This document shows, piece after piece, positions 13,765 through 32,000 of a stretch of 32,000 nt of DNA. The DNA is from Candidatus Omnitrophota bacterium (GTDB lineage Bacteria; Omnitrophota; Gorgyraeia; Zapsychrales; JANLHA01): NCBI GenBank assembly GCA_963662715.1, contig OY759724.1, forward strand, positions 600,001 through 632,000, read 5' to 3'. How positions within the stretch are numbered: the stretch's first letter is position 1; each line of letters starts with the position of its first letter. The notes beneath the pieces were generated by a model, which worked only from the letters and a program-made list of their open reading frames with translations, had not been told where the DNA came from and did not search any database. Position numbers and translations under genes: made by a program.

Positions 13765-13799
13765 GGCTAAATAACAGTCTATTGATGCTGATAAATAAA

Positions 13800-13873: not shown

Positions 13874-14033
13874 AGGAAGCAATATCTACCTTCGATTAAG
13901 AATATCTTATACAGCTATCAAAAGGAAGATAGCTTGATAAACAACGTATAACGTCAATTGATTGATTTATTATACCAGCGATTTAAAAATTAGCAAGATG
14001 GTTCAAAAAGGATATGAAGCGACAACGGCCGTG

Positions 14034-15291: not shown

Positions 15292-15789
15292 TTAAATCCA
15301 AAGACTTCCCCACCAGGCTCCCGGAGACAATTCCCCCAAGTAGTAAAAAAGAGGGTCATCCCAGGAAATGAGCGCCAAGAAGTCCACCTGTTCCGTTAAG
15401 TATTTATTAACAGTACGCACCTGCTGCTGATACCGAACAACTCCGGCCATGATCATAAGGCATAAAACGAAAACCCAAAGTGGGTTCCACTGAGGCGTCC
15501 ACGGCCGAAGGGACGGCTTCCAGCATACCCAGAAAAATCTTTGCGGGGATTTTGCGGGCCGGGCCTCGATATCCTTCTCGATACTCGACCATAAAGATGC
15601 CGGCGGAGAGCTCCGACGCTCTTCCTTCAATAAAGGGCCGACCTTTTCTTTGACTTCCTGCGCCAGTTCCCGGCATTGCTCGCATTGAGCAAGATGTTTT
15701 TCCACCGCCAGCGTCCGTTTGCTGTCGAGTTGCTCGTCCAGATAATCACTGAGAATGAAGTCCTGAACTTTTTCACATTTCATCATCAA
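15292..15789 (-). CDS. ZAS-type (zf-HC2) membrane anti-sigma factor
   Basis: HLAQCEQC (HxxxCxxC) near the N-terminus and one TM helix (WVFVLCLMIMAGVV). It overlaps the sigma gene stop. The exact ATG among MMM is uncertain. Confidence 0.8.
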   Translation of the reverse strand: MMMKCEKVQDFILSDYLDEQLDSKRTLAVEKHLAQCEQCRELAQEVKEKVGPLLKEERRSSPPASLWSSIEKDIEARPAKSPQRFFWVCWKPSLRPWTPQWNPLWVFVLCLMIMAGVVRYQQQVRTVNKYLTEQVDFLALISWDDPLFYYLGELSPGAWWGSLWI

Positions 15790-16333
15790 TCCCTTCCTTT
15801 CTCATAGCTTCCAAAATTTTCTCGCGGGCCCGCTTGATTCTCGTTCTGACAGTGTTCAACTTTATACTCAAAACTTCCGATATTTCCTGATAGTTCAATC
15901 CTTCCATTTCCCTTAATAATATGCAGGCACGCTGCTCGGGAGACAGCCCCCGCAGCACCGCATCCCTTATACGGGACTTATCGTTCCAGGATACCTCGTC
16001 TGAAAAAATACCGTGCGAATCTCTTTTCTGAACCCAATGCCACTCACCGCGTATTTTCTGTTCTTTCAAACGTCTTCGGTAATGATTGATCGCTGTGTTG
16101 ATCGTGATGCGGTAAACCCAGGTTTTAAAAGAGGACCGGTAGTTAAACCTTCCCAGAGAACCGTATATTTTCAGGAATACTTCCTGAGCCACTTCTTTGG
16201 CGTCTTCCGGGTTTTCGTTCATACGCAGCGCCAAATGATAGACATAGGCCGAACTGGCTTCATAAATCATCCTGAATGAAGTCCGGTCTCCTGCCGCTGC
16301 CTGTTTAATAATGTCTGCCGGGATGGATTTCAT
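15773..16333 (-). CDS. ECF (sigma-70 group 4) RNA polymerase sigma factor
   Basis: 186 aa. Region 2 (..VAQEVFLKIYGSLGRFNYRSSFKTWVYRITINTAINHYRR) and region 4 HTH (LREMEGLNYQEISEVLSIKLNTVRTRIKRAREKI). Confidence 0.9.
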   Translation of the reverse strand: MKSIPADIIKQAAAGDRTSFRMIYEASSAYVYHLALRMNENPEDAKEVAQEVFLKIYGSLGRFNYRSSFKTWVYRITINTAINHYRRRLKEQKIRGEWHWVQKRDSHGIFSDEVSWNDKSRIRDAVLRGLSPEQRACILLREMEGLNYQEISEVLSIKLNTVRTRIKRAREKILEAMRKEGIDDEM

Positions 16334-18490: not shown

Positions 18491-18697
18491 TCAGGGTTCA
18501 GGAACAGGCTCATGAGCTTTCCGGCCATAAACTTTTTCATAAGCCTGACAAAAAGGACAAATCTTGTTTTCAATCGTCTTCACAAACCAAAAAATAAATC
18601 CGCGTTGTTTGTCCCGGGCCTTGCGGCACACAGGGCATTCCACGCATTTCTGGGCCATCTGACGGTCCCGCTCTGTTACGGCATTCTCATGCGGCAT
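18491..18697 (-). CDS. small Cys-rich (CxxCxxC ... CxxC) protein, putative zinc ribbon
   Basis: 68 aa. Strong SD AAAGGAGGA lies 5 nt upstream of the ATG. Motifs CVECPVC and CPFC flank a hydrophobic GFIFWFV stretch. Confidence 0.55.
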   Translation of the reverse strand: MPHENAVTERDRQMAQKCVECPVCRKARDKQRGFIFWFVKTIENKICPFCQAYEKVYGRKAHEPVPEP

Positions 18698-18855
18698 ATC
18701 GTCCTCCTTTCCTGATTCGAGAATAATAACTCAATATTAACAGACCTTGCCCTTGTTCTGTTTATATACGACCCTGTCCTGCCCAATCAACGAGCACATT
18801 TTTCTAGTTCCTTTTGGCCCTGTTGGGGAAGCAAGTTCCTGTCCGATCTTATTGC

Positions 18856-19905
18856 CTAAAAGTATTCAATAATTTTCAATGATAAATATTGGGAGAATAT
18901 TTCATTCCCTGCATCATTCAAATGATTTGCATCCATAAAATATTTTTCTTTATAACTCTCAAGTATCGGCTGGATCACTTTCAAATTGTCATTTGAATTT
19001 AAAATATCTTTTACGGCTTGCTTATATATATTGTTCATGCCATTCTCTTCCCTCTGCTCAAAAAGTGTTTCAGGCAAAGGAGAATTGAACATGAAAACAT
19101 ATATTTTATGCTCTTTGGCTAAATCAATAAATTTATTAAACCAATAAAGGGCATCATGATTAATGACGACTTGCTGTTTATAAAATATTGACTCCTTTAT
19201 ATCGTCTTCGGTTATTATATTGTCTTTGCCAAAAACAATCCCGCCATTATGTTCCTTCAAAACAGTATCAAGCATTTGAGGGCCCGAAAACTCCTGCCAA
19301 GGATTCATCAAAAGAATTTTAATTTCTTTACGGAAGGTCAGCAGGTAAGAAAATCTTTCTATCTCCGGGATGATAATTTCTCCGGAGCATCCCGGCGGCA
19401 CAACACTCATCATATCTGCCAAATCAAATAATTCACAAAATCTATGAACATAAAGATATTTTCCATACATATCCTGACAGATATCCCATCCTTTGAATAA
19501 ACTTTCAGGCATTGTCGAAATAAAAACGATCTTCGGTTTTTCATGTTGCTGCAAATAGTTATATAAAAATAAATAGTACGTACGCATATCTGCATACGGT
19601 GTGGAGAAATTATAAATATCGACTCTTTTATTCATCTCCTTTGACAAGGCATCAGAAATAATCTTTGCGTTAATACCCAAAGCACGGCTGTCCCCAAGGA
19701 TGATACCGCTAAACTTTAATTTGTTATCACCGTCAATAATGGCTTTTTTCTTATAAATAATCATGTCCGCAAATCCCAATATTTTATCAGGGATGTTTCT
19801 AACAAAAGATTCCGTTAACGCCAGCATTAATAAACACAGGAAAAAGGCATACGGTATTTTCTTAGAATTGAAAATAGATAAATTCTTTTGCACCGGTAAC
19901 TCCAA
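18856..19905 (-). CDS. SGNH/GDSL-like (DUF1574-type) protein, probable periplasmic O-acyl transfer partner of MBOAT
   Basis: N-terminal TM anchor. GDSR (block I) and DANHLN (block V DxxH). TTG start 19905 overlaps the MBOAT gene by 44 nt; alternative GTG at 19893. Confidence 0.7.
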   Translation of the reverse strand: MELPVQKNLSIFNSKKIPYAFFLCLLMLALTESFVRNIPDKILGFADMIIYKKKAIIDGDNKLKFSGIILGDSRALGINAKIISDALSKEMNKRVDIYNFSTPYADMRTYYLFLYNYLQQHEKPKIVFISTMPESLFKGWDICQDMYGKYLYVHRFCELFDLADMMSVVPPGCSGEIIIPEIERFSYLLTFRKEIKILLMNPWQEFSGPQMLDTVLKEHNGGIVFGKDNIITEDDIKESIFYKQQVVINHDALYWFNKFIDLAKEHKIYVFMFNSPLPETLFEQREENGMNNIYKQAVKDILNSNDNLKVIQPILESYKEKYFMDANHLNDAGNEIFSQYLSLKIIEYF

Positions 19906-21295
19906 ATATTATTAAACATATAAAACACACATAATAAAAAATGGCTTTGATAATTACGTTACTTTTGTAAACAATCATTAAATCTTTCTTTGAATACTGC
20001 CAGACCTGAACTGCCAAAAGAATAAATATATATTTCAAAACACCCCAAAACTGCATTCCGAGCTCTTTCAAAGGCACATACTCCCACTGAAAACATAACG
20101 CATAGAACATATTGGAAAGCTGCGGGAATGATTGGGCGCGGAATATCAGCCATCCGATACATGTTATATGAAAAAAGATTATTATTTTGAGAGCAAAACA
20201 CATTTTTTTCGCAAAAACACTTTCAAAAAAACCTGTCTTAATTCCTATCGATTCTATCAGTCGTTGAAACATTAAAAGTAAGCCGTGATAAGCGCCCCAC
20301 GCAATAAATGTCCAGGAAGCCCCGTGCCACAGCCCTCCCAGCAACATTGTAATAGCTAAATTTCGATGCATTCTATTCGCGCCTTTTTTATTCCCGCCTA
20401 ATGGGATATATAAATAATCCCGAAGCCAGGTTGATAAGCTGATATGCCATCTGCGCCAGAATTCCCTAGGATTAGTTGAAAAATATGGCAGGTTAAAATT
20501 CACCATAATTTCAAAACCCATACATTTGCTTAACCCTCTTGCGATATTGGAATATCCGGCAAAATCACAAAAAATTTGAAATGAGAATGCATATAAAACA
20601 AATAATATTTCAAAAGCATTGTCAAAATTCTTTACTTTTCCAAAAACAGTATCCACGTATAAAGCCAAATTATCGGCGACAAAAACCTTCTGGAATAATC
20701 CCCAGAAAATCAAGTAACACCCTTCATAAAATTTCGTTAATGTGACCTGTCTTGACTGTACGACTTGAGGAAGAAGATGTTTGGCTCTTTCGATTGGGCC
20801 TGCCACGAGTTGCGGGAAATAAGCGACAAACAACGCAAAATCTAAAAATCCTCTCGTGGGCTTAAGTTCCTTTCTATAAATATCAATTGTATAGCTCATC
20901 GTCTGGAATGTATAAAAAGAAATACCAACGGGCAAAGTAATTGCTAAGGAAAATTCGGGGATCTGGAATCCAAACGAATTCATCAAATGCTGCAGGTTTG
21001 ACGTAAAGAAATTACAGTATTTGAAAATTCCTAAAACACCCAAATTACCTAAAACGCTGAGAAATAGAAATCGTTTCCGAGTCTTTATGTCTTCAGTTGA
21101 ATCTATTTTCAGCCCGCAGAAATAATCCAACACTGTTGAGATGACTATTAAAGACAAGAACCGATAATCCCAACTGCCATAAAATATATAGCTGGCAATT
21201 AGCAGCATCCTATTCTGCCATTTGTGATTGAGCACGAGATAAAGAGAATATACTATGGTGAAGAATATCGCAAATTGTAATGAATTAAACAGCAT
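19862..21295 (-). CDS. MBOAT-family membrane O-acyltransferase (AlgI/DltB-like)
   Basis: 477 aa, polytopic. FWRRWHISLSTWLRDYLYIPLGGN and LLGGLWHGASW contain the conserved MBOAT His. Confidence 0.9.
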   Translation of the reverse strand: MLFNSLQFAIFFTIVYSLYLVLNHKWQNRMLLIASYIFYGSWDYRFLSLIVISTVLDYFCGLKIDSTEDIKTRKRFLFLSVLGNLGVLGIFKYCNFFTSNLQHLMNSFGFQIPEFSLAITLPVGISFYTFQTMSYTIDIYRKELKPTRGFLDFALFVAYFPQLVAGPIERAKHLLPQVVQSRQVTLTKFYEGCYLIFWGLFQKVFVADNLALYVDTVFGKVKNFDNAFEILFVLYAFSFQIFCDFAGYSNIARGLSKCMGFEIMVNFNLPYFSTNPREFWRRWHISLSTWLRDYLYIPLGGNKKGANRMHRNLAITMLLGGLWHGASWTFIAWGAYHGLLLMFQRLIESIGIKTGFFESVFAKKMCFALKIIIFFHITCIGWLIFRAQSFPQLSNMFYALCFQWEYVPLKELGMQFWGVLKYIFILLAVQVWQYSKKDLMIVYKSNVIIKAIFYYVCFICLIIFGVTGAKEFIYFQF

Positions 21296-21505
21296 TTGTT
21301 CAGGGATTCAGGTGTTTATGTTAAAAATTTATACTAATAAAAACAGGGACACACTGACCCGGGTCTCGGATATTGATCCAAAATGTCAGATAGATTATGC
21401 TCCCAAGGACGCGGAACCCCCAATTCGGTTAAGGCGTCCATCGCCATGACCTGCATCTTCGACGTTTCCCTCGTTTAGCCAGAAAAAAAATCCGGCTAAA
21501 AGTCA

Positions 21506-21640
21506 CTACCCTAAGATGGAAAAAGGGATGATGACACAATCCACATGATTCCAGGTTTTTAAATTTAATGTTCTGGTTAAGAAAAGTCCTAAGGATAAGC
21601 AGAATAGCGAAAGGAAGAAGACTGTCAGGTAACGTGTCAT
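21506..21640 (-). CDS. possible 44-aa hydrophobic small protein
   Basis: MTRYLTVFFLSLFCLSLGLFLTRTLNLKTWNHVDCVIIPFSILG. It starts 19 nt after the receiver gene stop. No SD, so the call is weak. Confidence 0.2.
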   Translation of the reverse strand: MTRYLTVFFLSLFCLSLGLFLTRTLNLKTWNHVDCVIIPFSILG

Positions 21641-21659
21641 AATTTTGGATTTTTAAAAT

Positions 21660-22085
21660 TCAGCTTCCTTCTATCGGGGACGGATTTCCGTGCAGGCGGC
21701 GGTTGATCGATTTCCGGATTTCGCTTAACAGCTTTTGGGGATGCAGGGGTTTGGCAAAAATCCGGTATAAACAACCGTCAACCTCAACCGTCTCATCGCC
21801 TTTATCCTGTTCAACGCCCATGGTTACCGTTATGAAAAAAACGGGAATCCGGTTCGTCCCGGGGTCTTTCTTGATCTCTCTCAGGACATCCATACCTCCG
21901 ATATCCGGGAGCATGACATCCAGTAAAATAAGGTCCGGTTCTTCGGCCCGGGCTTTCGCAATCCCGTCCTGCCCGTTGAGGGCGCCGACAACGTCCTTTC
22001 CGGCACTAACACACCATTTCTGCAATAAACGTACGGTATTAGGATCGTCATCAATAACAAGTATCTTTGAAAATTTTTTTACCAT
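21660..22085 (-). CDS. stand-alone response-regulator receiver, atypical alpha4-beta5 region
   Basis: DDD, LLDVMLPD, FITVT, AKPL. No output domain and no kinase nearby. Confidence 0.85.
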   Translation of the reverse strand: MVKKFSKILVIDDDPNTVRLLQKWCVSAGKDVVGALNGQDGIAKARAEEPDLILLDVMLPDIGGMDVLREIKKDPGTNRIPVFFITVTMGVEQDKGDETVEVDGCLYRIFAKPLHPQKLLSEIRKSINRRLHGNPSPIEGS

Positions 22086-22161
22086 ACAGGATGCCTTCCT
22101 CTAAAATAAAAGCACTGCCCCTGCCAACGGAAGAAGCTGTTCAAAGCGGTTAAAACAATGA

Positions 22162-22320
22162 TTAAAAAAGAGTGTAAATAAACGGGGCCACCGCTGAGCT
22201 TTCCGCAAAAATAATAAGCAAAGATAACAGTCCCAGAATAATGATGATAGGCGCTAACCAGTAACGTTTGCGCACCCGCAAAAAAGCCCACAATTCTTTA
22301 AGGATCGACATTTTTGACAT
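22162..22320 (-). CDS. DUF5989 (SxtK-like) small membrane protein
   Basis: Below the track cut-off; track ORF 22079..22291 is a different frame. MSKMSILKELWAFLRVRKRYWLAPIIIILGLLSLLIIFAESSAVAPFIYTLF matches the family pattern, including the C-terminal APFIYTLF. AGAGG upstream. Confidence 0.75.
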   Translation of the reverse strand: MSKMSILKELWAFLRVRKRYWLAPIIIILGLLSLLIIFAESSAVAPFIYTLF

Positions 22321-22386
22321 AACAACCTCTTAGATATGTTTTAACGCTTGCTGTATTACCCCTGGGGCGTTTACAGCTGAGTCCCT

Positions 22387-22785
22387 TTAAAACTGCCTTA
22401 AATAGGATTCCTTATGAAATTCGGTTTTCGGCCGCGTGATCCAGTAACTGCTTTTTCCCCGGGCAAACGCCTGATCCAATAAATCTTTACGCAACAACCG
22501 CAAAACACAGCCGACAACTCCAAAAACACCATAATAGAGAACCGTGAGGGTAACCGTGGACAGGACCAGACCGACAAATTTCGCGACTGTCATCCATTGC
22601 CGGTAGAATCCCTTTAAAAAAAAAGGGTTCCGCCACGTCATCCCGGCCAAAACCGCGGCGATAAGCAGCTGGAGGACATGCCCGAGTCCGAAGCCGTATT
22701 TCCATCCCCAGCGGCCGCCAAGAACGATAAGAATCAGGGACAAGCCGTAACCGAAAACAAGCAAATCTTTTTTTTCTTTATCCAT
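22387..22785 (-). CDS. SxtJ-family membrane protein
   Basis: 132 aa, hydrophobic. The C-terminal ..LLRKDLLDQAF..SSYWITR....YLRQF resembles the SxtJ family. It starts 1 nt after the carbamoyltransferase stop. Confidence 0.65.
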   Translation of the reverse strand: MDKEKKDLLVFGYGLSLILIVLGGRWGWKYGFGLGHVLQLLIAAVLAGMTWRNPFFLKGFYRQWMTVAKFVGLVLSTVTLTVLYYGVFGVVGCVLRLLRKDLLDQAFARGKSSYWITRPKTEFHKESYLRQF

Positions 22786-22786
22786 T

Positions 22787-24619
22787 TTAATCTAAAATCT
22801 GCGAAATGTCTTCTTTTTGATATTTATCTTTATTCGGCTGCTCGTCTTTTCGCAAAAGAAAATGCCCCAGCACCAGATAATCCATGTTCGTGCACATAAA
22901 ACACCGGTAGGCATCCTGGGGGGTGCAGACAATCGGCTCTCCCCTGATGTTAAAAGACGTATTGATAATCACCGGGCATCCCGTCATATGCTCAAACGCC
23001 TTAATGATGTCATAGTAAAACGGATTTGTCTGAGACGAGACCGTTTGTATCCTGGCCGAATAATCCACATGGGTCACAGCCGGAATCACAGAGCGCAGGA
23101 CTTTCAGCTGCTCCATGCCTGATTGAGAACTGGTCCTGCTTTCCGGGCTGACCTTATCATCCTGCACAGGCGCCACCAGCAACATATAGGGACTTTCCTT
23201 TTCTATCTGAAAATAATCCCCCGCTTTTTCCTGCAGCACGCTGGGCGCAAAAGGACGGAACGACTCCCGGAATTTTATCTTCAAATTCAGCAGTTCCTGC
23301 ATTTGGGGAGACCGGGCATCGGCGATGATGCTGCGGGCGCCCAGGGCCCGCGGACCGAATTCCATGCGTCCGGAGAATAAGCCCACAATGTTCTGGTCCA
23401 CCATCAGAGAAGCAACCTCCTGCGCCAGCTGTTCCGGTTCAACATGGCGGTAAGGGGCCCCTTCGTGATCCAGAAATTCCTTAATGGTCTCATCCGGAAA
23501 GACCGGCCCCAGGAAGGACCCTTTTTGTCGATCATGTTTATCATCCGCCGAACGGGGGTTGTTCAGATACTGATGCCAAACCAGCAACGCTGCCCCCAGA
23601 GCCCCCCCGGCATCACCGGCGGCAGGCTGTATCCAGACCTCCTTGAAAGGCGTCTCCCGCAAAATCCTCCCGTTACCGACGCAGTTTAAGGCCACGCCTC
23701 CGGCCAAGCACAAATGATCACACTGAGTTTCCCGGTGGACATGGCAGGCCATTTTCAGCATAATCTCTTCCGTAACCACCTGTATCGACCTGGCGCAGTC
23801 CATTTCTCTTTGCGTGATTTCGCTCTCGGGTTTGCGCGGCGGCCCGCCGAAAAGGTTATGAAACTTGGCGTTGGTCATGGTCAAGCCGGCACAATAATTA
23901 AAATACCTCATGTTTAAGCGGAAAGACCCGTCCTCTTTGATATCCACAAGTTCCTCTTTAATGACATCCACATACCTCGGCCGGCCGTAAGGGGCCAGGC
24001 CCATGAGTTTGTATTCCCCGGAATTGACCCGGAATCCCGTATAGTAGGTAAAAGCGGAATAAAGCAGCCCCAGAGAATGCGGGAAGCGGATCTCCGCCAT
24101 AAGCCGCACCCGGTTGCCTTCCCCCTGCCCGTAACTCGCCGTGGCCCACTCGCCCACCCCGTCCATGGTTAAAACGGCCGCTTTATGATACGGCGACGGA
24201 AAAAAAGCCGCGGCCGCATGCGACTCATGATGTTCGGGGAAAATAATATCTCCGTCATAATGCAGTTCCTGCTGCAGGAAATCTTTCATGAATATTTTCT
24301 GCTTCAGCCACAAGGGCATGGCTTTTAAAAACGACCGGATGCCCAGAGGGGCATACGTGAGATAGGTCATTAATATCCGTTCAAATTTGATGAACGGTTT
24401 TTCATAGAAACCAACGTAGGACAGTTCCTGTGCTGTGATCCCCCCTTCCCGCAGGCAATAATCGACGGCCTGTGCCGGGAAGGAAAAATCATGCTTCTTG
24501 CGGGTAAAACGCTCTTCCTGCGCCGCGGCCAGTATCTCTCCGTTCTTCACCAGACAGGCGGCACTGTCATGGTAAAAGGCTGAAATTCCTAAAATAAATA
24601 TATCTTTCGCTTCTGACAT
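22787..24619 (-). CDS. NodU/CmcH-family carbamoyltransferase
   Basis: 610 aa. ILGISAFYHDSAACL, EERFTRKKHD, PEHHESHAAAAF, GLAPYG, LAGGVALNCV. Confidence 0.92.
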   Translation of the reverse strand: MSEAKDIFILGISAFYHDSAACLVKNGEILAAAQEERFTRKKHDFSFPAQAVDYCLREGGITAQELSYVGFYEKPFIKFERILMTYLTYAPLGIRSFLKAMPLWLKQKIFMKDFLQQELHYDGDIIFPEHHESHAAAAFFPSPYHKAAVLTMDGVGEWATASYGQGEGNRVRLMAEIRFPHSLGLLYSAFTYYTGFRVNSGEYKLMGLAPYGRPRYVDVIKEELVDIKEDGSFRLNMRYFNYCAGLTMTNAKFHNLFGGPPRKPESEITQREMDCARSIQVVTEEIMLKMACHVHRETQCDHLCLAGGVALNCVGNGRILRETPFKEVWIQPAAGDAGGALGAALLVWHQYLNNPRSADDKHDRQKGSFLGPVFPDETIKEFLDHEGAPYRHVEPEQLAQEVASLMVDQNIVGLFSGRMEFGPRALGARSIIADARSPQMQELLNLKIKFRESFRPFAPSVLQEKAGDYFQIEKESPYMLLVAPVQDDKVSPESRTSSQSGMEQLKVLRSVIPAVTHVDYSARIQTVSSQTNPFYYDIIKAFEHMTGCPVIINTSFNIRGEPIVCTPQDAYRCFMCTNMDYLVLGHFLLRKDEQPNKDKYQKEDISQILD

Positions 24620-24655
24620 AATACAGACTGAAGGTCAAGGAAGGCAAAAAGGACA

Positions 24656-26179
24656 TCAGATAGATTCGGCTGCCGTCATTGTCTTTAACACGGTTGTGGC
24701 CGGACAATCGAGATCTTCCAGCAAACGCCTTTTTAAAGGTGTGGCCAGCATCCGCAAAATATGCTCTTTCGTTTCTCTCCCGAACTTCTCCTCTATCATC
24801 CAGAGATATTCCGGCCGGCTGTGATACCGGGCAAAGGCTTCGTCCCGGAATTTCAATACTTCACGGGCCGGAATCGTCTTCGTCGGCATGGGATAACATT
24901 CATAACCGTACAGGGAATATCCTTTCCAGCTTTCCGGTTCCTCGATATAGTCATAAAGTTTTGTCCCCGGATACGGGAAGACCGGATACATATTCACCCA
25001 CTCAAAATTGTACTTCACTAAAAATTCATAGGTGCGCATCATGGAGTCCAGGTCTTCTTCCCAGAGTCCGAACATAACATCCGCGCAAATACTCACGCCT
25101 TCTTCCTGGGTCATCCGGATAACGTCATCGACATTGGGGTTCTTGCACCCTTTTTCGGCCTGCAGCAAAATTTCACTGGTGGCCGACTCAAACCCATAGG
25201 AAATCCAGTTCAGGCCCACTTTCTTAAGCCGGCGTAAAAGCCGGCGGCTGATCGTATCAACCCGGGAATAAGCCCACATATTCAGATCGTAATTTTTGGC
25301 CTCCAGCTTATCACAGAATTCTTCGATTCTTTTCGGGTTCACCACAAAAAGCTCATCCAGTATTTTAATATGCTTCACCTGATATTTTTCAACCAGGAGG
25401 CTGATTTCATTGACGACATTATCGACGCTGCGGAAACGCTGGATTCTTTTTCCAAACAGGTTGTTGATACAGCAAAAATTGCATTTAAACGGGCAGCCGA
25501 AACTCGTCCAGATAATGGCATACGGCGAACGGTTAAAGATATCGCCGAAACAATGCCAGTTATGCGCCCGGTACCGGGCGGGATTCATGTTTTTCCAATC
25601 TACCGTCGGCAAAACGTCCAGGTCTTTGACCAGCGGGGCATCTTGAGTCTGAATATAGATTTTTTCTCCGCCACAGTCCTCATAATAAGCCAGGCCGGCG
25701 ATATCCGCCAAAGAGCCGCCGCTGTACAGGACATGATACAGGTTCACGATGGTCTCATATCCTTCACCTCTGACAATAAAATCGGTACCGGTTTCTTTCA
25801 GCGAGCGCTCCGGGAGAACTGTGGGATGCGGCCCCCAGACAAAAGTCCGCACGTCTTTTACCTCATTTTTGCGGGCGCGATATTTCTCAAAGAACTGCAC
25901 GATACCTGCCATGGTCATCGTGGATGACGACGGGTTGGCCCCGGTGCAGATGACCCCGAACAAAAGGGGCTTTTCGCGGGCCACAATATCGATCAGGTCA
26001 TCCATCAAAACCATATCCACGTTGGATTCGATCATTTGGCAGTCAATATCTTTGGCCTTAACATAAGACGTCAATAACCCCATCTGGATATTCGGGGCCA
26101 CAGCGGAAAACTCATCAGCGGTCGATGAATAAAGCTGCTTTTTGCAGTTGACTGTTGCTAAAATAATCTTATCGCGCAT
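24656..26179 (-). CDS. B12-binding-domain radical SAM enzyme
   Basis: Track ORF trimmed to ATG 26179, 5 nt after GGGAG. N-terminal B12-binding-like fold (..VWGPHPT..VRGEGYE..). Radical SAM motif CPFKCNFC (CX3CX2C). Confidence 0.9.
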   Translation of the reverse strand: MRDKIILATVNCKKQLYSSTADEFSAVAPNIQMGLLTSYVKAKDIDCQMIESNVDMVLMDDLIDIVAREKPLLFGVICTGANPSSSTMTMAGIVQFFEKYRARKNEVKDVRTFVWGPHPTVLPERSLKETGTDFIVRGEGYETIVNLYHVLYSGGSLADIAGLAYYEDCGGEKIYIQTQDAPLVKDLDVLPTVDWKNMNPARYRAHNWHCFGDIFNRSPYAIIWTSFGCPFKCNFCCINNLFGKRIQRFRSVDNVVNEISLLVEKYQVKHIKILDELFVVNPKRIEEFCDKLEAKNYDLNMWAYSRVDTISRRLLRRLKKVGLNWISYGFESATSEILLQAEKGCKNPNVDDVIRMTQEEGVSICADVMFGLWEEDLDSMMRTYEFLVKYNFEWVNMYPVFPYPGTKLYDYIEEPESWKGYSLYGYECYPMPTKTIPAREVLKFRDEAFARYHSRPEYLWMIEEKFGRETKEHILRMLATPLKRRLLEDLDCPATTVLKTMTAAESI

Positions 26180-26210
26180 ATATTCTCCCGTTTTTTTGTT
26201 TTTATTATAC

Positions 26211-27758
26211 CTAAGAAATGCGACTTTCATTGCGATAAAATATTTTTTTTCGCAGGGTGCGTGCGGCCCTTAATTCCGGAGCGAAACGGTACCATTTGTG
26301 TCTGAGCCGGAATCTTTCAAAACGGCTGAAAGGATAAAACAAGGACCTGAGGAGCAGCCGCATCGCACTCTGACTTATGCCGCCGATCGCGTTTAAAGAA
26401 CTGTTCGCAAGAATGCTCATATACGTGATGTTGCCGATAATGTTCCGCTCCTGTTTGTTAAACCAGGGGATGATCCGGCCGCTGATATCATATTCATCGG
26501 AAAGCCAGTCAATCCAGCCCTCCAAATGATCGGGAGGCTGCAGCCCGTGCTGCAAAGCCAGAGAATACAGCGGGGTCTGCGGCAGAGCGGTGAACGTCCC
26601 GATGACTTCGAACTGTGCGCGGGGGTTGTCTTTTTTCAGGCGGACAAAAAGATCGATGGTCTGGTGAATATCCTCGAATGTTTCCGTCGGGAATCCTATG
26701 ATCAAAGCAAAAACCGGGACAATCCCGTGGGCTTTGGCTTTTAAATTGGCCCTCACGGTGTCCTCGACCCGGATGCCTTTCTTCATCAGTTTTAGCATGC
26801 GGTCCGACCCTGATTCCGCGCCGAACTTCAACGTGTCCGCCCCGCTCGCCTTATAGGAAAGAATTTCTTCGGTTGTCGCCCGGTTAAAAACATCGATCCT
26901 GGTGCCGGAGGAATACCACTTAAATTTTAAACCGCTCCGGATAATGCCCTGGCAGATCTGAAAAGCTCTTTGACGGTCGATATAAAATTCGTCATCCCTG
27001 ATCCAAATACTGTCCAAATTAAACCGCCGGACAGGCTCCAGGATCATCTTCAGGGATTTCTCCACGGACATCGCCCGCCATTTCCGCTGTCTTAACGTCG
27101 CGCTGGAACAAAAACCGCACTGATAAGGACAGCCGCGGGAGGTCTGCCCGATATCCATGCTCCGCGTCATTCCTTTCAAATAGAAGTCCCGGTGGATATA
27201 CTTTTCCACCTCCACCAGTTCCCAGGGAACCGGAAGAAGTTCTTCCACATCACATAAAGCCCGGCCCGGAGCGATAATTTTCCTGTCCCCGTCTTTATAG
27301 GCAATCCCCGCTATCCCTTCCAACGGACGTTTCCCGGAAAGCGCCTTGACGATTTCAGGAAACGTGATATCGCCCTCCCCCACACAAACAATGTCAACCA
27401 GGTCATGGTCCAGTGTCTGCTCCGGAAGACTCGACGGGTGGGCTCCGCCCCAAATAATAGGAACGGCCCCGTCCGTATGCTCCCGGATGACTCTGGCGGC
27501 CTGTAAGGCAAAATATATCTGCGTGCCGGTCATTGTCGAAATTCCGGCACAAACAGGTTTTTGCTTGAGAGCTTTGACGAGGCTTTCCCGCCAATCCTCT
27601 TCCACCCGCTGATCAATAACAGCAACTTTATAACCGGCTTTCAGCAAAGGGGCCGCCAGGGAGAGAACGGCATGAGGCGGGGCCACCGTGGCCCCTAAAT
27701 CGACCCCTGTCTTGGGATAAATGAGGATAACATCTGTATCGTTATAATATAAAGGCAT
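26211..27758 (-). CDS. B12-binding-domain radical SAM enzyme
   Basis: 515 aa. ..IIWGGAHPS..CVGEGDITF.. then CPYQCGFC (CX3CX2C). Confidence 0.9.
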   Translation of the reverse strand: MPLYYNDTDVILIYPKTGVDLGATVAPPHAVLSLAAPLLKAGYKVAVIDQRVEEDWRESLVKALKQKPVCAGISTMTGTQIYFALQAARVIREHTDGAVPIIWGGAHPSSLPEQTLDHDLVDIVCVGEGDITFPEIVKALSGKRPLEGIAGIAYKDGDRKIIAPGRALCDVEELLPVPWELVEVEKYIHRDFYLKGMTRSMDIGQTSRGCPYQCGFCSSATLRQRKWRAMSVEKSLKMILEPVRRFNLDSIWIRDDEFYIDRQRAFQICQGIIRSGLKFKWYSSGTRIDVFNRATTEEILSYKASGADTLKFGAESGSDRMLKLMKKGIRVEDTVRANLKAKAHGIVPVFALIIGFPTETFEDIHQTIDLFVRLKKDNPRAQFEVIGTFTALPQTPLYSLALQHGLQPPDHLEGWIDWLSDEYDISGRIIPWFNKQERNIIGNITYMSILANSSLNAIGGISQSAMRLLLRSLFYPFSRFERFRLRHKWYRFAPELRAARTLRKKIFYRNESRIS

Positions 27759-27763
27759 CTTTC

Positions 27764-28732
27764 CTATTTAACCGGATGCTCTTTATACCAAGCCATCGTT
27801 TTCAGAATACCGGTCTTAATCTCTGTCTGCGGTGCAAAATTTATAAGTTGAGCGGCCCTGGAAATATCCACCAGCCTGACGGGAATCATGGTGGGTTTGT
27901 CCGGATCAAAGACGATCCGGGCATTCTTGAATCCATCCACGTCACACATCATATGCAGCAACTCCTTAACGCTGTATCCCTGTCCGCAACCGACGTTCAT
28001 GGCGGAATAAGAATCAAGCCGTTCCATGGCCGTGAGCATCGCCGTCACAAAATCCTGGACATAAATGAGGTCACGGACATCGTCCCCGGTGCCCCAAACC
28101 TCGAGCGGGTCATGTCTTTCAACCACCCTCCGGACAAGAGCGGCAAAGACATGAGATGTTTCAAAATGGAAGTCATCATATTCCCCGTAAATATTGGTCG
28201 GCCGCAGAACCAGGGTCGTCATCGGAGGATGAACCTTTTCGGCGTACATCCGGCATAACACCTCGGTATATCTTTTCATCCATCCGACGGAAAAATATTT
28301 GTCATACGGGTCTCCCGTCAGCATTTCCTCCTCGCGGACCGGGCGGTCTCCGGTGGGAGGATATCCGGTGGAACTGCTGAGCCATAAAAATTTTTTGACC
28401 CGCGCTGTGTATGCCGCCTCCATCAGCTGGGCGTTCATGACAATGTTCGGGGTGACATGCACCAAAGGCGTCTTCTGAATAACCGCCGCACCCGAGGTGC
28501 TGGCCGCACAGTGAAACAGATAATCTATACCCTCGACAACTTTTCGGCAATCCTCATTTTGCGTCAAATCACAGGAGACATATTCGACACGGTCGTCCTC
28601 GATCACCGGCGGACGCAAATGCCGGGTTGCCCTGATCTGCGCCCCGGTTTCCAGCAGGCGCCGGATCAAATTCGCCCCGACAAATCCTGTTGCTCCGGTG
28701 ACTAAAATTTTCTTCTTATAGAAAAAAGACAT
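27764..28732 (-). CDS. extended-SDR NAD(P)-dependent sugar epimerase/reductase (GDP-fucose synthase/GME-like)
   Basis: GATGFVG Rossmann motif. PTNIYGEYDDFHFETSHVFAALV parallels E. coli Fcl [23 protein letters not shown] as I recall it. Confidence 0.85.
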   Translation of the reverse strand: MSFFYKKKILVTGATGFVGANLIRRLLETGAQIRATRHLRPPVIEDDRVEYVSCDLTQNEDCRKVVEGIDYLFHCAASTSGAAVIQKTPLVHVTPNIVMNAQLMEAAYTARVKKFLWLSSSTGYPPTGDRPVREEEMLTGDPYDKYFSVGWMKRYTEVLCRMYAEKVHPPMTTLVLRPTNIYGEYDDFHFETSHVFAALVRRVVERHDPLEVWGTGDDVRDLIYVQDFVTAMLTAMERLDSYSAMNVGCGQGYSVKELLHMMCDVDGFKNARIVFDPDKPTMIPVRLVDISRAAQLINFAPQTEIKTGILKTMAWYKEHPVK

Positions 28733-28733
28733 T

Positions 28734-29513
28734 TCACCTGTTTTTCCTGCAGAATTCTTTGATGATCATACACAACTCGCTGATCCCGTTTTTGATGGGA
28801 TGCATCTTGCGGACGCCCCCTATGCGCGGCGGTTCGTCCCCGGGAATCTCCCCGATTTTAAGCTTTCTGCGGGCAGCCCTGGCCAGAACCTGCGTGCCCC
28901 AGGAAACGACTTCCGCACTGATATCCAGCTGGGCGATGATCTTGCGGCGGTAAGCACGGTACATGACTAAGGAATCGGTAATCTTCAACCTGAACAGCAG
29001 ACTAATAATGCGTGTAAACATCCAGTTCCCGAAAGCCGTTACGATGTCGTCATCATAACTCTTGGCCCCGTCCAGGTACCGGGACACGATCACAATATCA
29101 TAACCTTCTTTCATTTTATGGATAAGGTCCGGGATTTTCTCCGGTATGGAGTTCCCGTCCGGGCTGAAAACAATGACGATATCGCTCGTGGCCCGTGACA
29201 CAGCTTCCATAAAGGCGGCGCCGGCGCCTTTCTTCTCCTGCACGAAAATATCATACCCGTGGGCCTCCGCGTATTCGATGGTCCCGTCGGTTGACCCTCC
29301 GTCAACGATCAGCAGCTGGTCACACCATTCCGGCTTGATCCGCGGCATAATCACTTTCATCCCGTCAATTTCGTTCAAGCTGAAAATGATCAATGTCGCG
29401 GTCAGCTTCTCTGTGTCCTGTCCGGATCCCTGCTGCTGTTTTTGTGCCGTTTCTTCTGCCTGCATGGCCGCCCCTGTTTTTCTCCCGCGGTTATAAAACA
29501 ATTCTTCCCGCAA
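28734..29513 (-). CDS. GT2 glycosyltransferase (polyprenyl-phosphate sugar synthase, DPM1/ArnC-like)
   Basis: LIIFSLNE, IVDGGSTDGT, VFSPDGN (DxD-like). Short soluble GT-A. The track start is TTG 29513; ATG 29465 is the more likely start. Confidence 0.85.
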   Translation of the reverse strand: MREELFYNRGRKTGAAMQAEETAQKQQQGSGQDTEKLTATLIIFSLNEIDGMKVIMPRIKPEWCDQLLIVDGGSTDGTIEYAEAHGYDIFVQEKKGAGAAFMEAVSRATSDIVIVFSPDGNSIPEKIPDLIHKMKEGYDIVIVSRYLDGAKSYDDDIVTAFGNWMFTRIISLLFRLKITDSLVMYRAYRRKIIAQLDISAEVVSWGTQVLARAARRKLKIGEIPGDEPPRIGGVRKMHPIKNGISELCMIIKEFCRKNR

Positions 29514-29537
29514 ACCCTTTCCGTAGGGATAAAATAT

Positions 29538-30323
29538 CTACAACATGCTTTGACTCTGCCCGCCGTCAACAGGAATAGACGTCCCGTTAAGCAGACTTGC
29601 CGGCTCTGAACAGACAAAAGCCACAACGCTGGCCACTTCTTCCGGTGTTCCGAAGCGGCCCAGCGGCAATTCCCTCTGCACAAACTCCTCAGTCTCCTGC
29701 CCCCGTTCCTTTTGCTGCTTGGCCCACCCTGTATCGGGAATCATAATGGCGCCGGGGGCAATGCTGTTAAAGGTGACGCCGTCCTGAACAAGATACCCGC
29801 TTTTCGCCATGGCTTTCATAAAACTCGTCTGGGCGCTCTTGGCCATACAAAACCACGGCCGGCCCCCGGATTCCCGGCCGTAAATAGAGGTGATCGTGAC
29901 CACCCGGCCCCATTTCTGCCCGCGCATATAAGGGATGGCCAGTTTCGTGAACCGGATCGCGGACAAAACATTTTTCTCATAGACTTCCATCCACACCTTT
30001 TCATCGGTATCTTCGTATATCTCTTTCCCCCAGCGGCCGCCGCCGCCGACATTATTGACTAAAATATGTATCGTCCCCCACCTCCGGATCACCGCATCCA
30101 TAACTTTGTAAACATCCGCTTCCGTTGTTACGTCGGCCTGCAGGGATAAAAAGTCGGCGCCCGTGTCCTGAAGTTCTTTCTTCATGGCAGACACCTTTTC
30201 CTCTGTCCGTGAACAAACAGCGACCCGGCAACCTTCACGCGCCAAGGAAAAAGCGATCGCGCGTCCTATCCCGTGCGTCCCGCCGGATATAAAAGCTACC
30301 TTATCTTTAAGCCCTAAGTCCAT
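29538..30323 (-). CDS. classical SDR-family oxidoreductase (FabG-like)
   Basis: ISGGTHGIGRAIA (TGxxxGxG) and LVNNVGG (NNAG). See the finding on the missing Tyr. Confidence 0.85.
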   Translation of the reverse strand: MDLGLKDKVAFISGGTHGIGRAIAFSLAREGCRVAVCSRTEEKVSAMKKELQDTGADFLSLQADVTTEADVYKVMDAVIRRWGTIHILVNNVGGGGRWGKEIYEDTDEKVWMEVYEKNVLSAIRFTKLAIPYMRGQKWGRVVTITSIYGRESGGRPWFCMAKSAQTSFMKAMAKSGYLVQDGVTFNSIAPGAIMIPDTGWAKQQKERGQETEEFVQRELPLGRFGTPEEVASVVAFVCSEPASLLNGTSIPVDGGQSQSML

Positions 30324-30331
30324 GGAGATTC

Positions 30332-31306
30332 CTATGCTGTTTCCCTGTTGTTCCTGACCCAGTTCAAAACCCGTTCAGCCACATGATCCGCATCCAACCG
30401 GTAATGACGATGAATGCTGTCCCTGCTGCTGGGTATTGTGCAATGGCTGTCCGGGCAGGCCAGTCTTTTCATCGGGACACCGCATCCCGCATCTGCCCTT
30501 ATTTCAGCTAAAGCTGTTCCCAGCCCGCCGATCAAAGAATTTTCTTCCAGGGTCACGATCCTTTCGGCCCGCAACATCATATCAATCAAATCCGGTTCAT
30601 TCAACGGTTTCACTTTGAAAACGTCGATAACCCTGACCGAAAGCCCTTCCCGGGCTAAAGATTCAGCCGCTTTAAGCGCTGTATGCACCATAAATCCGGT
30701 CGAAAAGATAACGACATCCTGCCCCTCACGGACTTCGGACCAGCCTTTCTGAAGGTCATGGTTCCGGTCGTCGTAAAGCAGCGGCAGCTTCCCTTTTTCT
30801 AACCGGATATACACCGGCCCGGGATGGTTGTACGCCCAGCGGACACTCGCCTCTGTTAAAACAGAATCCGTGGGATTAATGATTGTCATCCCGGGGAGCG
30901 TCCGCATGACGGCGATATCATGCAGGGCATGATGGGTCGGCCCGTCGCCCCCGTACATAACGCCGGCACCTATGCCTATAATTGTCACCGGAAGGTTCAT
31001 CCCGGATAAATCCACTTTGATCTGTTCGTAACATCTTAGGGTGACAAAAGGCACAATACTGTAAATAAAAACATTCTTTCCGCCCAAGGCTAAACCGGCC
31101 GCCACACTCACCATATTCTGTTCGGCCACGCCGACATTGATATACTGCTCCGGAAGATTCTGTTTAAACCGTTCCAGACTAAAAGCGCCCATATCCGCGG
31201 TCATAAAAATAACATTCCTGTCCACCCGGGCCATCCGGAACAATTCGTCAAAGAAAGCGTCCCGGGTGTCTACGTCGGATATTTTCATACATTCAGTTCC
31301 GTTCAC
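30332..31306 (-). CDS. transketolase, C-terminal (Pyr + TKC) subunit
   Basis: TRDAFFDEL.., GVAEQNMVSVAAGLALGG, GPTHHALHDIAVMR. The track start is GTG 31306 (overlapping the upstream gene); ATG 31288 is an alternative. Confidence 0.9.
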   Translation of the reverse strand: MNGTECMKISDVDTRDAFFDELFRMARVDRNVIFMTADMGAFSLERFKQNLPEQYINVGVAEQNMVSVAAGLALGGKNVFIYSIVPFVTLRCYEQIKVDLSGMNLPVTIIGIGAGVMYGGDGPTHHALHDIAVMRTLPGMTIINPTDSVLTEASVRWAYNHPGPVYIRLEKGKLPLLYDDRNHDLQKGWSEVREGQDVVIFSTGFMVHTALKAAESLAREGLSVRVIDVFKVKPLNEPDLIDMMLRAERIVTLEENSLIGGLGTALAEIRADAGCGVPMKRLACPDSHCTIPSSRDSIHRHYRLDADHVAERVLNWVRNNRETA

Positions 31307-32000
31307 AATTCAGCAGCTCCTCAAGCTCGGTTCTGGCCTGCTCCACCTGCGCTTCTTTCGGGACCCCGTGGTGCCACTCCAGCCGGCTTTCCATAAAAGA
31401 AACACCTTTTCCTTTGACCGTATGGGCCACGATCATTAACGGTTTCCGGGAAGAACGCTGACGCACATCTCCCAAAACAGACAAAAGCTGACAGAAATCA
31501 TGTCCGTCCGCCTCCCGGACCTCCCAGCCGAAAGCGGACCACTTTTCCGCCAGCGGTTCCATCGCCGCACAGTCTTCCAGTCTGTCTGTCACACACATTT
31601 TATTATGATCAACGACAGCGATCAGATGGCTGAGATGATGTTGGGCGGCAAACATGGCCGACTCCCATACCGCCCCCTCGCAGCACTCGCCGTCTCCCAA
31701 TAAAACAAAAGTCAAAAATCCTGCCCCGTCCATCCTGGCGCTTAACGCCAGCCCGGCCCCGATCCCCAATCCGTGCCCCAGAGAACCGGTATCCGCCTCT
31801 ATCCCGGGGATGGATCTGTCAGGATGGCCTCCTAATATACAGTCCGGCTGCTGGTAACGCGACAGCTCCTCTTCCGGGAAAAAACCGCAATCCGCCAAGA
31901 TGGCATACAACGCTTCACACGAATGACCTTTACTGAGGATGAAACGGTCCCGGTCCGGCCAGGCAGGCTTTTGCGGATCAAACTTAAGGATCCCGCCGTA
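31293..32000 (-). CDS. transketolase, N-terminal (ThDP-binding PP) subunit, 5' end off window
   Basis: The frame stays open upstream of the track start to base 32000 (YGGILKFDPQKPAWPDRDRFILSKGHSCEALYAILA..). GSLGHGLGIGAGLA and the GDGECCEG ThDP/Mg motif. Confidence 0.9.
   Translation of the reverse strand, partial: YGGILKFDPQKPAWPDRDRFILSKGHSCEALYAILADCGFFPEEELSRYQQPDCILGGHPDRSIPGIEADTGSLGHGLGIGAGLALSARMDGAGFLTFVLLGDGECCEGAVWESAMFAAQHHLSHLIAVVDHNKMCVTDRLEDCAAMEPLAEKWSAFGWEVREADGHDFCQLLSVLGDVRQRSSRKPLMIVAHTVKGKGVSFMESRLEWHHGVPKEAQVEQARTELEELLNCERN

Follow-up and report, generated by a model that had tools for sequence, protein, structure and literature searches.

A run of tightly packed genes in a Candidatus Omnitrophota genome may well encode an envelope glycosylation pathway in which a single sugar is tailored unusually heavily. 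The genes lie on the minus strand of a 32,000-nucleotide stretch of contig OY759724.1 (positions 600,001 to 632,000; hereafter the window, with positions counted from its first letter). The Omnitrophota, very small bacteria that may be predators or parasites, form a widespread phylum. On balance we favor reading these genes as the middle and end of an operon of roughly 20-25 kb, vertically conserved in one Omnitrophota lineage, which would specify a three-component (Gtr/Arn-like) pathway. The architecture is of a known kind, that of three-component or Arn-like envelope glycosylation; the tailoring set that accompanies it is unprecedented.

Genes were identified by listing and translating open reading frames (ORFs), and domains by Pfam, NCBIfam and PDB sequence searches. 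Hairpins were scanned in comparison with shuffled sequence, RNA elements were sought with Rfam, and transmembrane segments were assigned by hydropathy.

Two glycosyltransferases carry the argument. The first is a GT2 enzyme (28734-29465) that is small, soluble and stand-alone, with no transmembrane segment. Its only PDB matches are ArnC, DPMS and GtrB, and its best NCBIfam matches, all below cut-off, are AglJ, Dol-P-hexose transferase, ArnC and PpgS. It is therefore assigned to the polyprenyl-phosphate glycosyltransferase type (ArnC/DPMS/GtrB/AglJ-like), and we predict that it forms a polyprenyl-phosphate-linked sugar. Its ATG start fits the 241-242 amino acids of its orthologs; an alternative TTG lies at 29513.

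The second transferase is encoded by the last gene of the unit (16779-18455), which specifies a 558-amino-acid membrane protein. Its homologs are named GT39 or PMT_2, and its own Pfam PMT_2 match (E = 4.5e-5) is below cut-off. A near-invariant W-x-D-E motif (W28-D30-E31) follows its first transmembrane segment. The protein has no sequence-level PDB match. Its AlphaFold2 (AF2) model, with a predicted local distance difference test score (pLDDT) of 93.6 and a predicted template-modeling score (pTM) of 0.92, matches PglB, ALG12, AglB, Pmt4, AftA/B and ArnT in Foldseek at a probability of 1.00; ALG9 and STT3 are also among its matches. All of the top 29 matches are GT-C enzymes except a GPI-transamidase complex chain (7wld_U) at rank 29; the likeness to ArnT is one of fold, with a template-modeling score of about 0.5. 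The modeled structure identifies the protein as a GT-C fold transferase, and we predict that its donor is a polyprenyl-phosphate-linked sugar.

How would a sugar made in the cytoplasm reach the envelope? Because the GT2 matches only polyprenyl-phosphate glycosyltransferases and the GT-C fold of the last protein is confirmed, the sugar would first be linked to lipid and then transferred in the periplasm, as in the Arn pathway. The original prediction, made from the letters of this stretch, had proposed an ArnC/ArnT-type route, and this is still the best reading. GT-C or YfhO-type proteins accompany the core genes in nearly every variant of the locus that we found in other genomes (YfhO-like in L003; PMT_2 GT-C in L037 and L007; L numbers denote related loci).

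Extent and conservation of the operon

Eleven tightly packed genes occupy positions 21660-32000. First in gene order come the N-terminal (PP-domain) and C-terminal (Pyr + C domain) subunits of a transketolase-like, thiamine diphosphate (ThDP)-dependent enzyme. The N-subunit gene (31293-32000; Pfam Transketolase_N, E = 3.5e-24) has its 5' end beyond the window; the C-subunit gene lies at 30332-31306 (Transket_pyr, E = 1.8e-36; Transketolase_C, E = 3.2e-26). A classical short-chain dehydrogenase/reductase (SDR) follows (29538-30323; adh_short_C2, E = 1e-49). Next are the GT2 (Glycos_transf_2), an extended SDR that is Fcl/GME-like overall (27764-28732; Epimerase, E = 1.2e-48) and two B12-binding radical S-adenosylmethionine (SAM) enzymes, which we call A (26211-27758) and B (24656-26230). 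The set closes with an SxtI-like O-carbamoyltransferase of the NodU/CmcH/TobZ family (22787-24619), an SxtJ-like membrane protein of 132 amino acids (22387-22785), a 52-amino-acid DUF5989 (SxtK-like) protein (22162-22320) and a stand-alone response-regulator receiver domain (21660-22085; Response_reg, E = 7.6e-18). Two other ORFs were set aside. A closed 205-amino-acid TTG ORF (31293-31910) was rejected as the transketolase N gene, since the frame stays open to base 32000 and is truncated by the window; an overlapping 70-amino-acid ORF (22079-22291) was rejected in favor of the 52-amino-acid DUF5989 gene.

The junctions between the eleven genes are, in gene order, -14 (or +4), 8, 72, 1, 5, -20 (or +31), 36, 1, 66 and 76 nucleotides. 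This agrees with the original prediction of eleven genes with gaps of at most 76 nucleotides. Its domain assignments were likewise all reproduced, that of SxtJ being weak in the window's protein. The limits that it set for the transcription unit, 21660-32000, are wrong: relatives extend the unit upstream, and downstream to the GT-C gene. Terminator-like hairpins are absent from the intergenic gaps of 21660-32000, and the overall number of hairpins is what shuffled sequence would give.

The carbamoyltransferase has thousands of homologs. Nearly all of the top 120 (68-100% identical) belong to Candidatus Omnitrophota, and an identical protein is encoded on a contig of 3.36 Mb. Two loci whose carbamoyltransferase is 77-79% identical (L001 and L002) hold the same operon in the same order, as do two GTDB species representatives (L003 and L004) and three metagenome contigs (L038-L040). 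Since this order is retained in all seven at 50-94% protein identity, the gene arrangement is not due to chance. The downstream flanks (an ECF sigma/anti-sigma pair, two small proteins, tRNAs and a DUF748 protein) are also syntenic in the relatives, which argues for vertical inheritance.

Wherever related contigs reach far enough upstream of the transketolase genes, at least five more genes precede them, overlapping or a few bases apart. They encode an SDR, a radical SAM/SPASM protein, a PHP-family metallohydrolase, a radical SAM protein of 345 amino acids and a third B12-radical SAM protein of 509 amino acids. The upstream start of the unit is seen in nine related Omnitrophota contigs, and in L003 YfhO-like membrane proteins lie still further upstream. 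On the other side, the receiver gene of the relatives is followed after about 57 nucleotides by a gene for a 68-amino-acid Cys-rich protein and then by the gene for a membrane protein of about 557 amino acids, the GT-C gene. The window has the small Cys-rich protein too (18491-18697; CxxCxxC...CxxC). Its orthologs, 74-78% identical, stand between the receiver and GT-C genes in L001-L004, L038 and L039; profile searches gave it no family match.

A core of the operon is kept more widely, in L005, L009, L016 and Candidatus Saelkia tenebricola (L037). In L037, L005 and L009 this core, at 50-70% identity, consists of the radical SAM/SPASM protein, PHP protein, radical SAM protein, B12-radical SAM protein, both transketolase subunits, the SDR, the GT2, the extended SDR and radical SAM A/B. 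The carbamoyltransferase, its two small partners, the receiver and the Cys-rich protein are missing from these three loci. A 765-amino-acid membrane protein follows radical SAM B there; it has no Pfam match, and its C terminus weakly resembles YfhO-like ORFs. L037 is the only one of the three with a GHMP kinase, a nucleotidyltransferase, a DegT aminotransferase and a PMT_2 GT-C protein, and L005 adds a Wzt ABC ATPase. Further away, a metagenome-assembled genome (MAG) of Elusimicrobia (L007) has the upstream genes, the transketolase pair, SDR and GT2, and then a PMT_2 GT-C gene. The transketolase subunits, SDR and GT2 keep one order, with a spacing of 1-70 nucleotides, from Omnitrophota to this Elusimicrobia MAG.

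The window departs from its relatives at one place. A 2.9-kb segment (18700-21660) with 33-38% GC, against about 50% in the operon, sits between the receiver gene and the gene for the Cys-rich protein. It encodes a DltB/AlgI-like MBOAT membrane O-acyltransferase (19862-21295; MBOAT, E = 1.8e-30; NCBIfam DltB, 170 bits, below cut-off) and a DUF1574 protein (18856-19905; E = 7.3e-12). The latter has an N-terminal anchor (transmembrane segment at residues 17-38) and an SGNH-like 'GDS' block I ('ILGDSRALG'). By these features the two are a genuine MBOAT/SGNH-type pair of the AlgI/AlgJ, DltB/DltD or PatA/PatB type. All six relatives that cover the junction lack the segment. Because of this absence and its low GC, the segment is a lineage-specific insertion outside the conserved pathway; no flanking repeats or mobility genes that would explain it were found at the segment. 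The original prediction had placed an acylation pair downstream of the operon: the pair itself is there, and its membership in the pathway does not hold. As for the rest of the window, its GC is 38-47%, compared with 49-54% in the operon (23000-32000); the higher value may reflect amino-acid or codon composition, or an older acquisition.

Where does the unit end? Just beyond the GT-C gene lie a promoter-like site (16737-16709), a cyclic di-GMP (c-di-GMP)-I riboswitch aptamer (16686-16608) and a strong hairpin of the intrinsic-terminator type followed by nine T residues (16587-16562). This region is the latest possible end of the unit. The hairpin had been taken for the operon's own terminator, an assignment revised once Rfam placed the aptamer directly upstream of it. 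The aptamer, of the GGC type, is conserved and keeps its place in five relatives (L001-L004 and L039). Beyond it are the ECF sigma/anti-sigma genes (15292-16333), which suggests a c-di-GMP-controlled ECF sigma factor beside the glycan operon. Further along, a DUF748/AsmA-like gene (12793-13764) has tRNA-Arg(TCT) and tRNA-His(GTG) genes on either side (13799-13874 and 12588-12664, minus strand). Its DUF748 paralog (4920-5849) lies near the gene for a triple-BON protein (7665-8435), and together they make an envelope-related set downstream of the operon.

Enzymes of the tailoring set

What chemistry would these genes perform? By fold, the radical SAM, SDR and transketolase-like proteins are members of known families, and they match no characterized function. 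The extended SDR illustrates this. It scores 166 bits on the NCBIfam Fcl model (cut-off 500), and its PDB match is GDP-fucose synthetase (E = 7.5e-31). In place of the YxxxK motif it has Y-x6-K ('YFSVGWMK'), so that the position four residues before the Lys (K-4) is Val and the Tyr stands at K-7, a spacing known from FabI-type enoyl reductases; this is conserved in 22 orthologs. Of the Fcl epimerization pair, it retains His179 and has Thr for Cys109. Both Y-x6-K and Thr-for-Cys are conserved down to 30% identity.

The extended SDR also has company outside the phylum. Radical SAM B has about 1,000 homologs; a scan of metagenomes with it as query gave five loci, a number too small for statistics on co-occurrence. 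Among the homologs, in a Deltaproteobacteria MAG and two other MAGs (L034-L036), a radical SAM B 49-52% identical to ours adjoins a GT2 (47-59% identical) and an extended SDR (32-38%). These loci contain GmhA, GmhB, a GHMP kinase and a nucleotidyltransferase, a GDP-heptose-type set, together with ABC-2/ABC transporter genes of the Wzm/Wzt type. The GT2, extended SDR and radical SAM B travel together across phyla, a module that sits within O-polysaccharide and heptose loci.

Such company raises the strongest alternative, a conventional cytoplasmic nucleoside diphosphate (NDP)-sugar pathway to a GDP-heptose or GDP-mannose derivative for the lipopolysaccharide (LPS) core or an O-antigen residue. 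All tailoring would then take place on the NDP-sugar, with the GT2 an ordinary Leloir chain builder and the GT-C protein an unrelated ligase, polymerase or modifier. The extended SDR indeed comes closest to GDP-fucose synthase and GDP-mannose 3,5-epimerase, Wzt/Wzm genes are close by, and related loci hold GHMP kinase, NTP-transferase, GmhA, GmhB, DegT and RmlC-like genes typical of NDP-heptose tailoring. We nevertheless consider this pathway unlikely. The window operon itself has no sugar-activating genes, the small, stand-alone GT2 matches polyprenyl-phosphate glycosyltransferases only, and GT-C or YfhO-type proteins recur beside the core in nearly every variant.

Radical SAM A and B both have B12-binding and Radical_SAM Pfam domains above cut-off and a CxxxCxxC core (CPYQCGFC in A, CPFKCNFC in B). 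The closest solved structure to A is OxsB (E = 5e-19); A is missing in six close relatives (L001, L003, L004 and L038-L040). B is BchE/HpnJ-like below threshold, with 150 bits on the NCBIfam BchE model and 146 on HpnJ. None of the curated B12-radical SAM subfamilies (BchE, HpnJ, HpnR, PhpK, GenK/Fom3-like, OxsB, AprD4) is reached: the best scores for A and B are 144-150 bits on BchE and 146 on HpnJ, against cut-offs of 481-578, and their PDB matches lie at no better than E = 1e-14 to 1e-19. The nearest structures of the radical SAM proteins are OxsB, AprD4 and TokK, at E = 1e-10 to 1e-19. Two candidate functions were considered and rejected: phosphonate or phosphinate biosynthesis (the upstream B12-radical SAM protein is nearest a P-methyltransferase model), as phosphoenolpyruvate mutase is absent from all loci, and cofactor maturation of the mycofactocin, pyrroloquinoline quinone (PQQ) or heme-d1 type (matches of the radical SAM/SPASM protein), as precursor peptides and partner genes are lacking and all scores fall far short of the cut-offs.

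HpnI, a GT2, and HpnJ act together to form the cyclitol ether of bacteriohopanetetrol. Could the operon make a membrane glycolipid head group in a similar way, as in the HpnI/J/K or calditol pathways, with the GT2 glycosylating a lipid, radical SAM B rearranging the sugar (for example by contracting its ring to a cyclitol) and carbamoylation following? HpnJ is nearly the best match of radical SAM B, the GT2 and B are tightly coupled across phyla, and A is closest to OxsB, a non-methylating, ring-contracting enzyme. The HpnJ score, however, is far under its cut-off of 578 and equals that for BchE. Hopanoid or other lipid-scaffold genes and a deacetylase are lacking, and the GT-C transferase would be left without a role. 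We judge this reading improbable, and more so than the NDP-sugar pathway.

Translation of the N subunit of the transketolase-like enzyme gives the ThDP/metal motif GDG-x(25-30)-N and the catalytic His residues ('LLGDGECCEG...VVDHN', 'SKGH', 'GGHP', 'WHHG'). The closest PDB entry to the C subunit is the split transketolase of Carboxydothermus hydrogenoformans (6yaj; E = 2.8e-47). The residues that bind sugar phosphate are Arg358, His461 and Arg520 in Escherichia coli numbering (Arg318, His416 and Arg474 in the human enzyme). The C subunit retains the cofactor-activating Glu, an Asp/His pair and one Arg (the Arg358 equivalent); the Arg520 equivalent is variably Lys or Arg. The equivalent of His461, which binds phosphate, is replaced by Gly ('IGAG' versus 'THAG' in 6yaj) in all 30 loci examined. 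These come from MAGs of Omnitrophota, Elusimicrobia, the candidate phyla radiation (CPR), Deltaproteobacteria, Verrucomicrobia and archaea. The NCBIfam model of canonical transketolase (NF004559) has its cut-off at 488 bits and is not reached, the scores being 196 and 204; the DXS model gives 179 bits. By sequence, the Gly defines a distinct subfamily of split transketolase-like C subunits in sugar clusters. In CPR and other phyla the pair occurs inside sugar-nucleotide clusters with an orthologous SDR, extended SDR or both. Three such clusters from CPR and Omnitrophota (L014, L017 and L019) hold a pyruvate dehydrogenase E1-like alpha/beta pair as well as the split transketolase-like pair, along with a GHMP kinase, an RmlC-like cupin and several extended SDRs.

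The classical SDR has the Gly motif (TGxxxGxG) and 'NNVG', with Phe at the position of the catalytic Tyr ('PWFCMAK'), and reaches no NCBIfam model. Tyr is replaced by Phe in Omnitrophota and Elusimicrobia orthologs and retained in those from CPR. The original prediction had named redox and ketol-transfer steps. The domain classes behind both steps stand; the steps themselves are less certain than these classes imply, given that the SDR catalytic Tyr and the phosphate-binding His are missing.

Might the operon be a juxtaposition of independent modules? The split transketolase would then be a housekeeping enzyme, supplying for instance sedoheptulose 7-phosphate (S7P), and the carbamoyltransferase, its two partners and the receiver would serve some other substrate. 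The carbamoyltransferase trio, the receiver, radical SAM A and the MBOAT pair are each dispensable in some relatives, and transketolase homologs are found in heptose loci where S7P is a precursor. Several facts make this view very unlikely: the constant order and close spacing of the transketolase, SDR and GT2 genes from Omnitrophota to an Elusimicrobia MAG, the Gly in place of the phosphate-binding His at all 30 loci, and the co-occurrence of the transketolase family with orthologous SDRs and extended SDRs even in CPR genomes.

The carbamoyltransferase covers its two Pfam profiles in full, Carbam_trans_N (Kae1-like; E = 1.6e-101) and Carbam_trans_C (YrdC-like; E = 8.8e-73), and contains the metal-binding His motifs ('FYHDSAA' and 'HHESHAAAA'). 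Its PDB matches are GdmN, NovN and TobZ, at E of about 1e-84 to 1e-73. The DUF5989 protein is a full-length match (E = 7.5e-25) with a single transmembrane segment. The protein between them, with three or four such segments, is a weak Pfam match to SxtJ (E = 0.21), and its orthologs at 50-59% identity match at E <= 0.001. These ortholog matches, together with synteny, size, topology and its position between carbamoyltransferase and DUF5989, are why we call it SxtJ-like. In the saxitoxin cluster sxtJ is 405 bp and sxtK 165 bp, so that the gene sizes of the SxtI/J/K trio match in all three (PMC2679770). The literature lists SxtJ and SxtK just as partners of SxtI without an assigned role, and the term 'DUF5989' turned up nowhere in a full-text search.

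The trio belongs to the window operon, as the original prediction had it. It is not a fixed part of the pathway: the orthologous cores in L037, L005 and L009 do without it, and it is a modular add-on. In other Omnitrophota (L031-L033; carbamoyltransferase 68-70% identical) the trio is found in a different locus, beside LptD, two UDP-sugar dehydrogenases, a split E1-type ThDP enzyme, epimerases and a GT9 heptosyltransferase. A homolog of radical SAM B (30-37% identity), a GHMP kinase, a nucleotidyltransferase and DegT are also present. This may be an LPS-core or heptose locus, possibly one that yields a carbamoylated heptose. Because other Omnitrophota place the trio next to LptD, dehydrogenases and GT9, it is tied to LPS-type sugar metabolism. 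The combination of trio, split ThDP enzyme, extended SDR and B12-radical SAM enzyme recurs in Omnitrophota LPS-type sugar loci.

The receiver follows DUF5989 in L001-L004, L038 and L039 and is absent in L037. No cognate kinase lies near this orphan receiver in the window. A two-component pair elsewhere in the window (9756-11811, minus strand) consists of a PAS histidine kinase (10366-11811) and a LuxR-type response regulator (9756-10379).

A specialized-metabolite cluster making a diffusible bioactive compound (an aminoglycoside, a nucleoside or something moenomycin-like) is the least probable alternative. Among solved structures the carbamoyltransferase is nearest to enzymes of antibiotic tailoring (GdmN, NovN, TobZ) and the radical SAM enzymes are nearest to AprD4, OxsB and TokK, and a toxin cluster is where the SxtI/J/K trio was described, but no scaffold-forming enzyme (polyketide synthase, nonribosomal peptide synthetase, cyclase or prenyltransferase), exporter or resistance gene is present, the flanks (ECF sigma, tRNAs, DUF748) are syntenic in all relatives, pointing to vertical inheritance, and related modules lie in LPS and O-polysaccharide loci.

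The proposed pathway and known systems

All four alternatives fit the pairing of GT2 with GT-C, the synteny and the genomic context less well than does a three-component glycosylation pathway. In the pathway that we propose, the sugar would be remodeled as a nucleotide sugar or, likelier for some steps, once it is on undecaprenyl phosphate. The transketolase-like enzyme would add or extend a two-carbon unit on a carbonyl, and the two atypical SDRs would reduce or epimerize. C-methylation or rearrangement would fall to two or three B12-radical SAM enzymes and the two further upstream radical SAM enzymes. A hydroxyl would, in this lineage, receive a carbamoyl group from the SxtI-like O-carbamoyltransferase, which its SxtJ- and SxtK-like partners would hold at the membrane. 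The lipid-linked product would cross the membrane via a flippase, and the GT-C enzyme would transfer the sugar to an acceptor in the envelope, which could be the LPS core or O-polysaccharide, lipid A or a surface protein. In this genome only, the acquired MBOAT/DUF1574 pair may subsequently O-acylate a periplasmic glycan. The branched, C-alkylated, carbamoylated product is a prediction from gene content. Two of the steps have precedents: SDR tailoring of a lipid-linked donor ahead of GT-C transfer is known directly (PMC11127046), and carbamoylation of an LPS-core heptose is ascribed to WapO in Pseudomonas (PMC8005017).

Several observations weigh against this proposal. No flippase (GtrA, ArnE/F, MATE or Wzx) is found in the window operon, in L001-L004 or in L037; we regard this gap and the unusual motifs of the SDRs as its chief weaknesses. 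Genes for a nucleotidyltransferase or a primary dehydratase are missing from the window. Neither SDR has the Tyr that is canonical at K-4, and the transketolase-like enzyme lacks one canonical phosphate-binding His, so the chemistry that we assign to these enzymes could be wrong. None of the radical SAM proteins comes near any curated NCBIfam cut-off. Only relatives show the upstream half of the operon, the window ending within the transketolase N-subunit gene, and the argument for co-transcription comes from spacing and synteny.

A bolder version of the pathway is possible, and as a whole we consider it doubtful. The sugar would be a higher-carbon or branched one, C-methylated or ring-rearranged, and carbamoylated while on undecaprenyl phosphate. 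Three things would then be new. The Gly-for-His transketolase-like family would be a class of ThDP enzymes not recognized before, extending or branching non-phosphorylated sugars linked to lipid or nucleotide. In the cross-phylum module of GT2, Y-x6-K extended SDR and B12-radical SAM enzyme, glycosyl donors on lipid would undergo a new kind of radical tailoring. SxtJ and SxtK would serve as adaptors in the membrane, delivering the carbamoyltransferase to substrates linked to lipid.

The proposed pathway, if true, would give the Omnitrophota an envelope sugar made by chemistry not yet seen in glycan pathways: transketolase-like C-C bond formation, as many as five radical SAM enzymes and a carbamoyltransferase tethered to the membrane. 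Four questions would become directly testable: the role of the SxtJ/SxtK partners, the function of a transketolase-like family found in sugar clusters from CPR bacteria to archaea, the action of B12-radical SAM enzymes on polyprenyl-phosphate sugars, and the activity of SDRs without the canonical Tyr. The operon also offers new enzymes for glycoengineering. The immediate impact is limited in that the pathway is read from gene content in an uncultured organism, and uncharacterized sugar clusters are common in MAGs.

How does the operon compare with known systems? The original prediction knew of no characterized cluster that combines these genes, and full-text literature searches aimed at the combination agree: they returned no characterized cluster with this set. 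Parts of it have close counterparts. SxtI, SxtJ and SxtK stand in the same order as here, with 612, 134 and 54 amino acids compared with 610, 132 and 52, and share the Pfam families Carbam_trans_N/C, SxtJ and DUF5989. The context of the saxitoxin clusters differs entirely; the window has no other sxt genes, and the trio is widespread in Omnitrophota LPS-type loci. WapO (PA5005) of Pseudomonas, putatively the 7-O-carbamoyltransferase of an LPS-core heptose, is likewise a NodU-family enzyme in LPS biosynthesis. Compared by gene context, its neighbors (PA5004 WapH and the kinase PA5006) are not SxtJ/SxtK-like (PMC8005017). Moenomycin biosynthesis combines similar chemistry on a lipid-linked sugar, with the carbamoyltransferase MoeM5, the B12-radical SAM methyltransferase MoeK5 and the epimerase MoeE5, which is among the PDB matches of our extended SDR. 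The likeness is one of families in a non-antibiotic context: the operon has no prenyl-phosphoglycerate synthase or multi-glycosyltransferase assembly line.

In HpnI/HpnJ/HpnK and calditol synthase, a GT2 is tightly coupled to a BchE/HpnJ-like B12-radical SAM enzyme, as it is here. The operon differs in its radical SAM B (146 versus 578 bits), in having a GT-C enzyme and in lacking hopanoid genes. The split transketolase 6yaj shares the two-subunit architecture, ThDP motif, cofactor-activating Glu and catalytic His with our pair. It differs in its 'THAG' motif, where the family described here has 'IGAG' and is always in sugar-modification clusters. The ThDP-dependent sugar branching enzymes YerE and AviB1/B2 are a further comparison for this pair.

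There is a likeness in layout to the Arn system (PmrHFIJKLM), which makes the 4-amino-4-deoxy-L-arabinose (L-Ara4N) of modified lipid A. There, too, tailoring enzymes, an ArnC-like GT2 and an ArnT-like GT-C enzyme share one operon. A step on the lipid-linked sugar has its precedent in ArnD, and the pathway is controlled by envelope-signaling systems. The enzymes are not the same: Pfam and NCBIfam find no homologs of ArnA, ArnB, ArnD or ArnE/F in the window, and the GT2 scores 44 bits on the ArnC model, whose cut-off is 529. Three-component systems (GtrA/GtrB/Gtr*, CsbB/GtcA/YfhO, and PPPRS/MATE/GT136 of Citrobacter youngae, PMC11127046) have no counterpart to the transketolase-like enzyme, the four or five radical SAM proteins or the carbamoyltransferase, and they have a dedicated flippase, of which none was recognized in the window operon, in L001-L004 or in L037. 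What they share with the operon is its plan: a polyprenyl-phosphate monosaccharide synthase paired with a GT-C enzyme, an auxiliary SDR that may alter the sugar before its transfer, and a place in or near O-polysaccharide loci.

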